Source: a virus
Lineage: Duplodnaviria > Heunggongvirae > Uroviricota > Caudoviricetes
IMG/VR virus record: IMGVR_UViG_2576861193_000005
Reading direction: 5' to 3' (one strand)
DNA length: 4,830 nt
Shown one piece after another: positions 1 to 4,830 of this stretch. Position 1 is the stretch's first letter. Each line of letters opens with the position of its first letter. The notes under the pieces are model-generated. The model was not told where the DNA came from. It searched no databases and saw only the letters and a list, made by a program, of their open reading frames with translations. The position numbers were made by a program, and so were the translations under genes.

Positions 1-51
1 ACCGCCGGTATCAGCACCCCGCTGACATCCACCATTCTGGAGTTTTACTGA
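1..51 (+). CDS. 3' end of an upstream gene (16 codons, ...TAGISTPLTSTILEFY*), probably terminase large subunit (gpP-like) by P2 gene order; truncated by the window edge
   Basis: Frame 1 is open from base 1 to TGA at 49-51. That stop shares base 51 with the ATG of the portal gene, matching the P2 P/Q overlap as I recall it. No catalytic motif is visible in 16 residues, so identity rests on synteny only. Confidence 0.4.
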   Translation, partial: TAGISTPLTSTILEFY

Positions 52-1107
52 TGAGTAAGAAAAAAGGGAAAACACCGCGACCTGCGGCAAAAACAATCAC
101 CGCCAGCGCCCCGAAAATGGAAGCATTCACCTTTGGCGAGCCGGTGCCGGTACTCGACCGCCGTGACATTCTGGATTACGTCGAGTGCATCAGTAACGGC
201 AGATGGTATGAGCCACCAGTCAGCTTTACCGGTCTGGCAAAAAGCCTGCGTGCTGCCGTGCATCACAGCTCACCGATTTACGTCAAACGTAATATTCTGG
301 CCTCGCAATATTCTGGCTTCAACGTTTATCCCGCATCCGTGGCTTTCGCAACAGGATTTCAGCCGCTTTGTGCTGGATTTTCTGGTGTTCGGTAATGCGT
401 TTCTGGAAAAGCGTTACAGCACCACCGGTAAGGTCATCAGACTGGAAACCTCACCGGCAAAATATACCCGCCGTGGTGTGGAAGAGGATGTTTACTGGTG
501 GGTGCCGTCCTTCAACGAGCCGACAGCCTTCGCACCCGGCTCCGTGTTTCACCTGCTGGAGCCGGATATTAATCAGGAGCTGTACGGCCTGCCGGAATAT
601 CTCAGCGCCCTTAACTCTGCCTGGCTGAATGAGTCGGCCACGCTGTTCCGCCGCAAGTATTACGAAAATGGCGCCGGCGCTCATGCCGGATACATCATGT
701 ACGTCACCGATGCCGTGCAGGATCGCAACGATATCGAAATGCTTCGCGAAAACATGGTTAAGTCGAAAGGCCGCAATAACTTTAAAAATCTGTTTCTCTA
801 TGCCCCACAGGGGAAAGCCGACGGCATTAAAATTATCCCGCTCAGTGAAGTGGCAACGAAGGACGATTTTTTTAATATCAAAAAAGCCAGCGCCGCTGAC
901 CTGCTGGACGCGCATCGCATCCCCTTTCAGTTGATGGGCGGCAAGCCGGAGAACGTCGGGTCACTGGGAGATATTGAGAAAGTGGCAAAGGTCTTTGTCC
1001 GCAATGAGCTAATCCCGTTACAGGACAGGATTCGGGAAATAAACGGCTGGCTCGGTCAGGAGGTCATCCGCTTTAAAAACTACTCACTGGACACTGACAA
1101 CGGCTGA
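51..1107 (+). pseudogene. Q: P2 gpQ-like portal protein gene, disrupted by a +1 frameshift (16-bp insertion near 291-306)
   Basis: ORF 51..395 (frame 3) gives MSKKKGKTPRP...PIYVKRNILAS then junk to a stop at 393-395. ORF 133..1107 (frame 1) is junk until ~298, then RNILASTFIPHPWLSQQDFSRFVLDFLVFGNAFLEKRYS... to a stop at 1105-1107. Both frames encode RNILAS because aatattctggc occurs at 291-301 and again at 307-317. Removing 16 bp joins the frames into a ~346-aa protein, the size and sequence I recall for P2 portal gpQ (344 aa). Confidence 0.8.
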
Positions 1108-1112
1108 ACATC

Positions 1113-1134
1113 GCCGCCTGCGGGCGGCTTTTTT
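1113..1134 (+). terminator. Rho-independent terminator after the portal gene
   Basis: GC stem gccgcc (1113-1118), loop tgcg, ggcggc (1123-1128), then tttttt (1129-1134), starting 6 nt after the Q stop codon. Confidence 0.7.
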
Positions 1135-1276: not shown

Positions 1277-1295
1277 GTGCTTTCCCCGCCTCGCC
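1277..1295. other. cos: P2-type cos site (19-nt cohesive-end sequence)
   Basis: gtgctttccccgcctcgcc at 1277-1295 is the exact reverse complement of GGCGAGGCGGGGAAAGCAC, which I recall as the P2/P4 cohesive end. It sits ~170 bp past the portal stop, as in P2, where Q ends ~220 bp from the left genome end. Confidence 0.7.
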
Positions 1296-1312
1296 CGCCC
1301 GCTTCATGGGGT

Positions 1313-1338
1313 GGTTTTAATGCACGGTTTTAATGCAA
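1313..1338. repeat. Two tandem copies of a 13-bp direct repeat (ggttttaatgcac / ggttttaatgcaa) next to cos, followed by a partial third copy (aatgcac, to 1346)
   Basis: Direct reading: 1313-1325 and 1326-1338 differ only at the last base. The repeat lies 18-43 bp from the cos 19-mer. Function unknown. Confidence 0.8.
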
Positions 1339-1439: not shown

Positions 1440-3791
1440 TTAAAGTTCTGTATATATTAGGCGTAGCATATCCTGCGCATAACTTTTCATATCTTCATCA
1501 GTCCATTCACGGATAACGTGCATAGGCTCATTGAGTGCAGTTCTAAACCCATGAATTCTTCTGGCCGTCTCCTCTTCCAAAATACCATCTTCAGCCAGTC
1601 GATTAATACACACAGAAAAATCCGTTCTATCATTTAAGTTGCAGTCTGTCAGTTGTTTGCGATAACGAGAACGGAATTCTGATTCAAGATATGGCCTTAA
1701 AGATAGTATTATTGTCTTATCAGTATCCACACCATTTATAAAATCAACAATCCTCTCATAGGATCTCTCATGGTCTGAAGCTATTAATTGCTCTACCTTC
1801 AGCGGTTCAAAATTAGAACCGTCTTGACCTTGTTTGATCTGAAGAATTCTATCCAAATTAAATTTTTGAGATGTCTTTGCTGCCATTCCTTTATAGTGTG
1901 TAGTAATAAACATCTGTTTTACATAAGGCTGTAATTCATACAACTTCTGCAAAATACAAGATATTCTTTCCTCATCAAAACTTGTTACAGGATCATCCAT
2001 AATAAGAATAGCTTTTGATTTCTCATCATTAGGTAACAAGTAAATTTTAGAAAGAAAGATGCACAAAGCCAAAGCTCGGCGATCTGACTCACTAAACAAA
2101 CAATTAAGTTTGTTTTTTCCAACTGACTTCCCATTAAATGAAACGTCAAGTTCATAAACAATTTTTGTACCCTGCCTGTTTATTTTTTTATTTATAGAAA
2201 ATTTACTAGATCCAACAGAACAGAACAGAGAATTAATGTGCTCAAAATATTTGTTTAAAAATTGCTCCTGGCATTCCTCTAATGTTTTCTTCTTCTCATT
2301 ATAGTTTTTTTCCCTAATATCTATTTCTTTTTTCAGTTCAAGATATTCTCGACAATCTGGCTCAAGCAATAATCTTTTTTTATTAGATTCCCACTGCTCA
2401 AGATCTTTTTGATAGATTCCCAGTAATACATCTAATTTGGTGGAATTGATACTTTCTTTATACTTCACCAACTCATTATTGAGCTGATTAATAATGCTAT
2501 TGTATGATTCCAATTTGCCATGAATTTCATGCTCAAATTGTAGAAGAGACGAAAAATCAAACCCCTTCATTTCGTTGTATACAGCTAATTCTTTCTCATC
2601 ATATATACACTCCAGTGATTGCTGAGCCTTAAGTAGATCTTGGTTAAATGTCAATATATCATTTCTTACTTGATTATAAATAGCACAACATGACTCAAAC
2701 CTTCCATTATTACTTAATTCATTTTTTATCTCATTCTCTAAATACTGTGACAAAACATCAATGTTTTTGCTATGTACATCATCAATTACATTTAATGAGA
2801 TAAATGAAAAATCAAGCCGCCTTATTTCTTTTAATTCTTTTTTTGTACTTTCAATAAAGCGCATAAATGACTCATCAAATGAATCCTTATAAGCACTAAT
2901 CAGCTCTTTTGATTCTCCTGATATACTCTGACCGCAAAACGGACATATTTCTGTGGCCATACCAAGCCCATTTGAGATCCATCCATTAAAATGATCGTGA
3001 GCCTTTATTCTCTCTTTATGTCGCTCTAATATAGAAAGTGCATCGTCATGAATTGTAGCCATTCCAGAAGAAAGACATTTATTAACCCTAATTGAAATAT
3101 CTTTCAACTTTGGTGTACAGTTAATTAAATTAAACAACGGCCTTGCTTTAATATATTTGACGGCTGTTTTCTTCTTTTCAACTTCTTGTATTGACTTAAT
3201 AAGCTCATTTATTTTTGAGTCAACGCAATCATAATCTGTTATGACAGGCTCACTATTAGCATACTCATCAACGTTATCAATTTGGTGTGATTGAATTAAA
3301 TCTTTTTTACTTCTTAACGAACCTCTTAAACTTCTTAATTCTGCATTCTCCTTTTCCAGAGCTTCAAAAGCAGCAACATTGTCTTCACCCAAAATAAATG
3401 CAGTAACACATTCAGAGTTTTCTCGATTAGATACTGTACCTGCCATTACATTTCTATGAACAAAACTCTGATCAAAGATATATAATTTAGAATCTGGTGG
3501 TGGTAATCCTGACCATTTATCTACATAAAATGAAACAACTCTATTTGAACTCCCCTCTGTGAATTGTAAATCAATCTTTGGAGTTACTTCACCATCTCCC
3601 TCCAGAATAGTCTTTCTGTTAACAACCAATTCAGGAGTATTCGTTGATAAAGAATAAAAGATGTCACAAAGAGTACTTTTACCATGTCTATTTTCACCGT
3701 AGATAACATTCATGTTATTAAACTCATAAGAGCTGGAGCGAGCTTTAATATAGTTACCTACGCCCTCTATTAATTTAATCCTCTTTAACAT
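1440..3791 (-). CDS. 783-aa PrrC/RloC-type (AAA_13-like) ABC ATPase with a long coiled-coil insert carrying CxxC, plus a C-terminal domain of unknown function; candidate single-gene anti-phage/abortive-infection protein (RloC-like)
   Basis: Uninterrupted 2352-nt ORF with ATG at 3789-3791, TAG at 1440-1442, and an AAGGA Shine-Dalgarno ~7 nt upstream. Motifs: Walker A GENRHGKST (aa 32-40, nt 3672-3698), Q-loop-like IFDQSF (aa 105-110), CPFC (aa 283-286, nt 2934-2945), signature-like SESDRR (aa 567-572, nt 2076-2093), Walker B/D-loop AILIMDDPVTSFD (aa 594-606), H-loop FITTHY (aa 628-633). Very AT-rich relative to both flanks. Confidence 0.85.
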   Translation of the reverse strand: MLKRIKLIEGVGNYIKARSSSYEFNNMNVIYGENRHGKSTLCDIFYSLSTNTPELVVNRKTILEGDGEVTPKIDLQFTEGSSNRVVSFYVDKWSGLPPPDSKLYIFDQSFVHRNVMAGTVSNRENSECVTAFILGEDNVAAFEALEKENAELRSLRGSLRSKKDLIQSHQIDNVDEYANSEPVITDYDCVDSKINELIKSIQEVEKKKTAVKYIKARPLFNLINCTPKLKDISIRVNKCLSSGMATIHDDALSILERHKERIKAHDHFNGWISNGLGMATEICPFCGQSISGESKELISAYKDSFDESFMRFIESTKKELKEIRRLDFSFISLNVIDDVHSKNIDVLSQYLENEIKNELSNNGRFESCCAIYNQVRNDILTFNQDLLKAQQSLECIYDEKELAVYNEMKGFDFSSLLQFEHEIHGKLESYNSIINQLNNELVKYKESINSTKLDVLLGIYQKDLEQWESNKKRLLLEPDCREYLELKKEIDIREKNYNEKKKTLEECQEQFLNKYFEHINSLFCSVGSSKFSINKKINRQGTKIVYELDVSFNGKSVGKNKLNCLFSESDRRALALCIFLSKIYLLPNDEKSKAILIMDDPVTSFDEERISCILQKLYELQPYVKQMFITTHYKGMAAKTSQKFNLDRILQIKQGQDGSNFEPLKVEQLIASDHERSYERIVDFINGVDTDKTIILSLRPYLESEFRSRYRKQLTDCNLNDRTDFSVCINRLAEDGILEEETARRIHGFRTALNEPMHVIREWTDEDMKSYAQDMLRLIYTEL

Positions 3792-4057: not shown

Positions 4058-4830
4058 TCACCTAAAACCTATCCACTCATCAGCGACCGGATACGTGAAT
4101 TGTTTCCCGTCATAATTTACAGTCGCGCCACGCGCCAGCGCCTCAAGCTCCCATCGCTGCGGCCTGATACCGTTCTGAGCAAGGTCAACGCGGATACGGG
4201 TGATTTGCATTCTTTCCGACCGGGTCAGTCTGGCCGATGGTGCAATTTCATGTAGTTTTAACGGGCTTCCGTTTCTTTGCTGACGGTTTGGTCTTCTCAG
4301 GCCGTGTTTTAATGCGCTTCTGAGCGCCCTCACAACCTCCGGGTCATTCCATTCGATAACACCGTCATCAACCAGATTAAGCACTGCTGCGGCGTGCTCA
4401 GAAGGTGTGGGAGCCGGTAACGAAGTATCACCGCCGGTGAGCTTTCCACAGTTATTGACAGGACTCCGAGGCGCGGCGATGCCGCTTTTTAAAGTCAAAG
4501 GCTCAACGACCGGCACTTTCGGAACAATGCGCCAGTCCGTCGTTCTGGTGATATGAATATGACGCGCGCCGAGATGCGGCGCGTAAATGCCGACCACTCT
4601 CTCGACTTCTTCCTCGTACTCGTTAACGTCATCCGACGGGCTACGGGCGACCCTGACAGTCTGACAATCGCGCGGGACATTTGCCCCGCCCTGCGCGCTG
4701 ATATACAACGCAAAATCACCACTGTCTGCAGCGGCGCGTGCAGCCTCGACGCGTTCATCAAACTCATCAGCAATGCTGACGCCGCGAGGCAATTTGCGTA
4801 GTTCACGGTAAGCCCCCATTGTCGGCAGGC
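4058..4830 (-). CDS. 3' portion (at least 257 codons) of a GC-rich prophage core gene running off the window; by P2 gene order possibly replication initiation protein gpA, identity unverified
   Basis: ORF 4058..4819 with TGA at 4058-4060. The frame stays open upstream of the Met at 4819 to the window edge and no Shine-Dalgarno precedes that ATG (upstream reads gcctgccgaca), so the true start is probably beyond the window. GC-rich like the Q side. I do not recognise a diagnostic motif. Confidence 0.6.
   Translation of the reverse strand, partial: LPTMGAYRELRKLPRGVSIADEFDERVEAARAAADSGDFALYISAQGGANVPRDCQTVRVARSPSDDVNEYEEEVERVVGIYAPHLGARHIHITRTTDWRIVPKVPVVEPLTLKSGIAAPRSPVNNCGKLTGGDTSLPAPTPSEHAAAVLNLVDDGVIEWNDPEVVRALRSALKHGLRRPNRQQRNGSPLKLHEIAPSARLTRSERMQITRIRVDLAQNGIRPQRWELEALARGATVNYDGKQFTYPVADEWIGFR

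Follow-up and report, generated by a model that had tools for sequence, protein, structure and literature searches.

The closest described relatives of the locus analysed here are the Peduovirus prophages, in which the P2-type portal gene (gpQ) takes its place in the order terminase, portal, cos, cargo hotspot and gpA. Among the 88 natural portal alleles that we compared (82 of them distinct), every one is exactly 1035 nt long with zero indels. Cryptic remnants of such elements also exist, and a true P2-like remnant is found in L006 at positions 9521–14000 (GCA_002520745.1, NOQQ01000001.1), between yegR and a peptidase U32 gene. Only parts of the prophage are left there: the final ~200 nt of gpA, a PDC-S06 cargo gene identical to the one described below, a portal gene intact at 344 aa, the final ~50 nt of the terminase gene, and ogr. 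This prophage is decayed by deletion, with its cargo retained.

A precedent of another kind comes from short-read assembly. According to the SOAPdenovo2 paper, heterozygous contigs were ‘improperly handled’ by the original SOAPdenovo scaffolder, the old GapCloser could arrive at an ‘incorrect selection’ where repeats were highly similar, and SOAPdenovo v1.05 was without the new gap-closure module (PMC3626529). In an independent benchmark, gap closure by SOAPdenovo raised the number of indel errors in E. coli from 4 to 25, and contig edges were found to be ‘often a source of misassemblies’ (PMC3446322).

The window, that is the whole stretch of 4,830 nucleotides analysed here, is a slice of a P2-like (Peduovirus) prophage, and its reverse complement corresponds base for base to an entire contig, AYKC01000084.1 (4830 bp), of assembly GCA_000511525.1. 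Positions 1–1200 show 95–98% DNA identity to P2-like phages and prophages when 22 gap bases are counted, and >99% identity to E. coli 23CRST009 outside those 22 gap bases; this region was matched in prophages of 1,662 of the 5,426 complete E. coli genomes. The contig begins with the 3′ end of the large terminase gene (P2 gpP; 1–50, plus strand), which is annotated in relatives as ‘terminase ATPase subunit’ and ends at the portal start, its stop codon overlapping the portal ATG (ctgATGa). The portal gene (51–1107, plus strand) stands directly after the large terminase and before cos, as expected of gpQ in a P2-like genome. After the portal stop, the sequence itself shows a G+C-rich hairpin and then a T run (cgccgcctgcgggcggctttttt; 1111–1134, plus strand), likely to be a terminator.

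Further downstream, positions 1277–1295 (minus strand) match exactly the reverse complement of the 19-nt GGCGAGGCGGGGAAAGCAC, which we take to be the P2 cos cohesive-end sequence. In phage S164, the linear record stops precisely at window position 1295; since linear records of this type end there, the two ends of the phage genome lie joined within the window. An ORF of 53 aa on the minus strand (1146–1307) spans cos, and at the equivalent position some relatives, 23CRST009 among them, have an ORF annotated as ‘hypothetical protein’. Since the ORF runs across the cohesive ends, it is unlikely to be a gene. At its other end the window holds about a third of the replication endonuclease (P2 gpA), namely its C-terminal part (4058–4830, minus strand, placed from the annotation of relatives), which shows no indels against relatives. 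The contig thus ends 50 nt before the end of the terminase gene on one side and inside gpA on the other, and both of these stretches are invariant or nearly so among P2-like prophages.

The portal gene in this sequence is interrupted by an imperfect tandem repeat of 16 nt, which the initial annotation had noticed and read as inactivation of the portal, implying a defective, cryptic prophage that keeps its defence cargo, or else as a sequencing or assembly error. A pattern search located AATATTCTGGC exactly twice in the window, at 291–301 and 307–317 with a spacing of 16 nt, in agreement with the repeat as first described. About 0.09 matches to this motif would be expected in the window by chance, and alignments of the relatives show a true insertion, which together rule out a chance repeat. 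A repeat search gave 88% identity for the unit at 288–303 and 304–319, and in the register 290–305 and 306–321 the two share 13 of 16 bases. As had been reported, the two copies have different tails, CTCGC at 302–306 and TTCAA at 318–322. Depending on the register, the copies are identical at 13–14 of 16 positions, which bears out the earlier remark that the extra unit is not a fresh, perfect slippage product; fresh slippage is ruled out by the 2–3 differences in 16 positions.

Where the closest relatives read AAA CGC AAT ATT CTG GCT TCA ACG, the window reads AAA CGT AAT ATT CTG GCC TCG CAA TAT TCT GGC TTC AAC G, and alignment of the two shows a clean insertion of 16 nt. The extra bases can be placed at 288–303 (equivalently 290–305 or 291–306; plus strand), opposite a gap in all relatives. 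Together with the CG at 304–305, which is shared with the resident CGC codon (304–306), they form CGT AAT ATT CTG GCC TCG, the R-N-I-L-A-S codons of another natural allele. The resident copy, CGC AAT ATT CTG GCT TCA (304–321, plus strand), is colinear with the closest relatives and identical to E. coli 23CRST009 and 730V1.

As written, the gene falls into two pieces that overlap in the ORF list, 51–395 and 133–1107, both of which encode RNILAS, as the initial annotation had stated. The first (51–395, plus strand; 114 aa) consists of 84 native-frame codons through RNILAS followed by 30 out-of-frame codons and a stop; it has no Pfam match, and its product is on record nowhere else. The rest of the portal gene (307–1107, plus strand) lies in the +1 frame relative to the start codon, within the ORF 133–1107. 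The product called from it, 240 aa encoded by 385–1107, is on record in AYKC01000084.1 only and scores 38.7 bits against PF04860 (Phage_portal), below the Pfam gathering cut-off of 39.1 bits, so that neither piece as written reaches that cut-off. A PDB sequence search returned nothing for the portal.

Deletion of 288–303 yields an ORF of 346 aa. This is the length that had been predicted for a gene with a single copy of the unit, and it holds as arithmetic; the natural portal, however, is 344 aa long, and the figure of 346 aa includes the two residues (Gly-Ala) of a second insertion at 669–674. Without 288–303 and 669–674, the gene encodes a 344-aa protein that is 100% identical to intact natural portals and scores 53.3 bits against PF04860, above the cut-off. 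Synteny, this profile match after repair and the identity to natural portals uphold the assignment of the gene as a P2-type portal. The window thus agrees with gpQ of Peduovirus prophages in gene order and in the repaired protein, and departs from it in that the ORF is split by 16 extra bases and contains two extra codons. At the DNA level, the repaired ORF differs from the closest allele at 6 of 1035 nt, all of them synonymous. Five synonymous differences from the closest allele, that of E. coli 23CRST009, cluster within 28 nt at 1011–1038; judging by sequence, this cluster looks like a small mosaic or recombination patch, or a trace of a second allele.

The 16-nt insertion has company: two further near-tandem insertions, missed in the initial annotation, lie within 1.1 kb. 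At 669–674 (plus strand), TGGCGC precedes CGGCGC, opposite a gap in all relatives. This 6-nt insertion is in frame and adds Gly-Ala to the protein (NGAGAH vs NGAH), and the T/C difference between its copies falls on a natural polymorphism, with C in 77 alleles and T in 11. The third insertion, of 13 nt, places TGGTTTTAATGCA before CGGTTTTAATGCA at 1312–1324 (plus strand), again opposite a gap in relatives, and was returned by TRF with a period of 13. It is intergenic, 17 nt past the cos cleavage site, precisely where the conserved cos region gives way to the variable cargo hotspot; prophages differ in the sequence that follows GGTTTTAATGCA. Since likeness among P2-like prophages ends at this third event, the site is a natural place for a contig to break. 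A T before GGTTTTAATGCA occurs in 1 of the 66 natural copies listed, so the T state at this event is rare. Each of the three events reads T-X-C-X against C-X in relatives, and insertions are confined to 288–303, 669–674 and 1312–1324, with no indel against the closest relatives in the remaining 3.5 kb.

We then compared the extra and resident copies with natural variation in the gene. Within the portal gene they differ at four pairs of positions, 290/306 (T/C), 302/318 (C/T), 305/321 (G/A) and 669/675 (T/C). All four coincide with columns at which natural alleles vary (19% of all columns in the gene), and in every case the extra copy carries the alternative natural state. The haplotype of the extra copy at the first site (CGT..GCC TCG) is present in 19 of 91 natural alleles and that of the resident copy (CGC..GCT TCA) in 12 of 91, and one natural allele (L025) has the ‘other’ state at both in-gene sites. 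By our own estimate, four later mutations within 22 nt would arise with p ~1e-5 at a background divergence of 0.6%, a figure that precedes any demand that all of the changes fall on natural polymorphisms. Because the differences all lie on natural polymorphic sites and the remainder of the gene is pristine, the sequence comparison indicates that the extra bases are pieces of a second allele, placed out of register, and not decayed slippage products.

To look for the insertions elsewhere, queries of 44–49 nt centred on each junction (CTGGCCTCGCAATATTCTGG, AAATGGCGCCGGCGC and AATGCACGGTTTTAATG for sites 1, 2 and 3, in that order) were run against the 5,426 complete E. coli genomes and returned no match for any of the three junctions; the positive control, a repaired 44-mer, matched 470 of these genomes. 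Exact-pattern searches likewise returned no match to the site-1 junction in viral, genome and metagenome collections, to the site-2 junction in viral and metagenome collections, or to the site-3 junction in viral and genome collections; the site-1 insertion was also absent from 108 matching phage records. This absence in all collections searched rules out a lineage-specific variant common to relatives. A genuine pseudogene would be expected to show its lesion in independent sequences of the same lineage, and no such sequence carried it. The repeat was absent throughout the closest P2-like portal genes, so that comparison lends no lineage support to inactivation. The converse situation, close relatives that carry the same repeat with a functional portal, was also not encountered among the 88 alleles, the 5,426 genomes or the 108 phage records. 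Strains FBH1 and FBP1, both from farm B, are not reported to be clonal, and there is therefore no independent second isolate for comparison.

Between cos and gpA, the window carries an intact cargo gene (1440–3791, minus strand) for a 783-aa ABC-type ATPase of the AAA_13 type, placed by PADLOC and Pfam profiles. Its residues 1–783 align with positions 1–780 of the 784 in the PADLOC profile PDC-S06 (PDLC04895; E 2.7e-154), and it scores 117.7 bits against Pfam AAA_13. This full-length profile match makes it a candidate defence gene, PDC-S06, in line with the earlier suggestion that the neighbouring gene is candidate defence cargo. Weaker matches were obtained to Lamassu LmuB and PARIS AriA, a PDB sequence search gave only a match to a RecF-like ATPase motif, and no NCBIfam family scored above its curated cut-off. 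A CPFC motif at residues 283–286, between Walker A (residue 32) and Walker B (residue 595), suggests a Rad50-like zinc hook in a coiled-coil insert.

The cargo gene has a GC content of 0.33, against 0.53–0.56 in its flanks. The identical protein is encoded on 22 contigs, and at least 80% of the cargo-region query is covered in 23 complete E. coli genomes; it was present in no phage record of the collection searched. Among nine other contigs listed, the portal beside the identical cargo is unbroken or the contig ends before the portal. The L006 remnant is an element of the same type with the same cargo, and has lost its genes by large deletion with the portal ORF intact; the window, by comparison, shows neither deletions nor accumulated substitutions, and its lesion finds no support in any other sequence.

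The provenance of the contig matches the assembly precedents described above. The AYKC01 records belong to E. coli ‘FBPI’, isolated from pig faeces in the Netherlands (PMC11893012, table), the strain called FBP1 by de Been et al. 2014 (PMC4270446). The genome is a draft, a short-read assembly of 2013: 90-bp paired reads from a HiSeq 2000 were built into scaffolds by SOAPdenovo v1.05 (k 21–63), and the authors themselves note, for several strains, the mis-assembly of multi-copy genes that are nearly identical (PMC4270446). AYKC01000084.1 is listed for two samples, which we assume to be its GenBank and RefSeq copies; if the second sample were an independent assembly, a real lesion would gain weight.

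We consider it very likely that the 16-nt repeat is an assembly artefact, produced by wrong joins, between contigs or across gaps, of two near-identical P2-like alleles. This reading is drawn from sequence comparison and provenance. The read set would have held two closely related P2-like alleles of the portal/cos region, the second of them contributed by another P2-like prophage in the same genome or by a minor contaminant. At three joins, a piece that ended in one allele would have been set against one whose start lay a few bases ‘earlier’ in the other allele, the overlap being left unmerged because it was short and mismatched. The outcome would be near-tandem repeats of 16, 6 and 13 nt in the form T-X-C-X, where real genomes have C-X or T-X only. 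That the contig ends in conserved gpP and gpA is as expected if a second, similar element forked the assembly graph. In keeping with an artefact, the contig comes from a short-read assembler with scaffolding and gap closure that is documented to mishandle near-identical copies, the extra bases are in second-allele states, and the events are clustered, with three within 288–1324 and none elsewhere.

The likeness to known join and gap-closure errors of SOAPdenovo v1 extends from the assembler and its version to the small insertions at apparent piece boundaries, the involvement of a sequence present in several near-identical copies, the variants of the other copy within the extra bases, and the restriction of the insertions to one assembly. 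Some observations run against it. The lengths of 16, 6 and 13 nt are not derivable from a simple k-mer bubble model and so set the case apart from the simplest errors of this kind; a simple SNP bubble is rejected as the exact cause, as it predicts branches no shorter than k (21 or more). Conservation among P2-like phages extends to the gpA segment too, yet that segment carries no such insertion, and the T state of the third event is, as noted, rare. The software step behind the joins may be gap filling or the trimming of contig overlaps; our search of the literature found no published description of the exact T-X-C-X near-tandem signature.

Taken at face value, the deposited sequence is broken, and the lesion could be real: patches of 16, 6 and 13 nt would have been inserted out of register from a co-resident P2-like prophage, through template switching or illegitimate recombination, and the prophage would be recently inactivated and unable to package, with PDC-S06 kept. 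A donor allele is plausible, since a genome can have P2-like portals in as many as 4 places (1934 places across 1662 genomes), degraded P2-like remnants with the same cargo exist, as in L006, and a very recent event would fit the absence of other decay. We nevertheless regard this as unlikely, because patches from the other allele would have to have entered out of register three times independently within 1.1 kb. Homologous exchange in register creates no duplication, which rules out in-register recombination between alleles as the source, and we know of no recombination process that routinely makes out-of-register patch insertions. Moreover, no portal gene of any other sequence examined, with relatives numbering in the thousands, has an indel, the carriers of identical cargo (among the nine other contigs listed) again speak for an unbroken portal wherever the contig reaches it, and the sole contig with the lesion was produced by an assembler with known faults in the handling of near-identical copies. 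The pattern of relaxed selection, with non-synonymous changes, indels and lost neighbours, was not found within the 4.8 kb of prophage. Still less likely, in our assessment, is the specific form of a real event in which repeated misaligned template switching between diverged prophage copies has only just abolished packaging and left PDC-S06 intact.

An old slippage event, in which point mutations later set apart the copies of an initially perfect 16-nt tandem duplication within an old pseudogene, would account for the head-to-tail arrangement with its 11-nt exact core, a classic slippage product. It must then explain three differences in 16 nt against 6 in 1035 nt in the rest of the gene, all three of them synonymous third-position changes that reproduce a common natural haplotype. 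An old pseudogene would also be expected to show further damage, yet the repaired protein matches functional portals in full, and the duplication occurs in no relative, which makes this origin very improbable. Programmed recoding, in which the ribosome would take off at the first CTG/GCC and land 16 nt further on at the matching codons in the second copy, or would shift frame in some other way, draws its sole support from the matched take-off and landing codons, which lie 16 nt apart and would restore the frame. The repeat is present in no relative, so that such a signal is not conserved, neither a stop nor a rare codon comes after the putative take-off site, and the two sister insertions, one of them intergenic, are left unexplained; we find this reading scarcely credible.

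The evidence therefore points to the sequencing or assembly error that the initial annotation had offered as its alternative, given a lesion unique to one sequence, three events, a two-allele signature and no decay. Its main inference, from an inactivated portal to a defective cryptic prophage, is unsupported: the lesion is unique to one SOAPdenovo draft contig, the underlying gene shows no decay and its repaired product is identical to intact natural portals, two sister insertions lie nearby, and the extra bases are in the states of another natural allele. From the sequence, the true gene is most likely an intact portal gene of 1035 nt encoding 344 aa, and the prophage is not callable as defective on present evidence.

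If the insertions were nevertheless real in the form of repeated template switching, the locus would offer a snapshot of the first step in prophage domestication together with an unusual inter-prophage mutational process; any real lesion would mean a prophage caught losing its portal with a candidate defence gene kept, a modest addition to what is known of prophage domestication. With an assembly artefact as the favoured explanation, the locus instead illustrates that ‘pseudogenes’ in old short-read drafts can be join artefacts, especially on small contigs bounded by conserved phage genes, and that several short near-tandem insertions, with copies differing only at natural polymorphic sites, are a useful fingerprint of such an artefact. 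Accordingly, it would be unsafe to count this portal as a pseudogene in surveys of prophage decay, or this P2-like prophage as defective.
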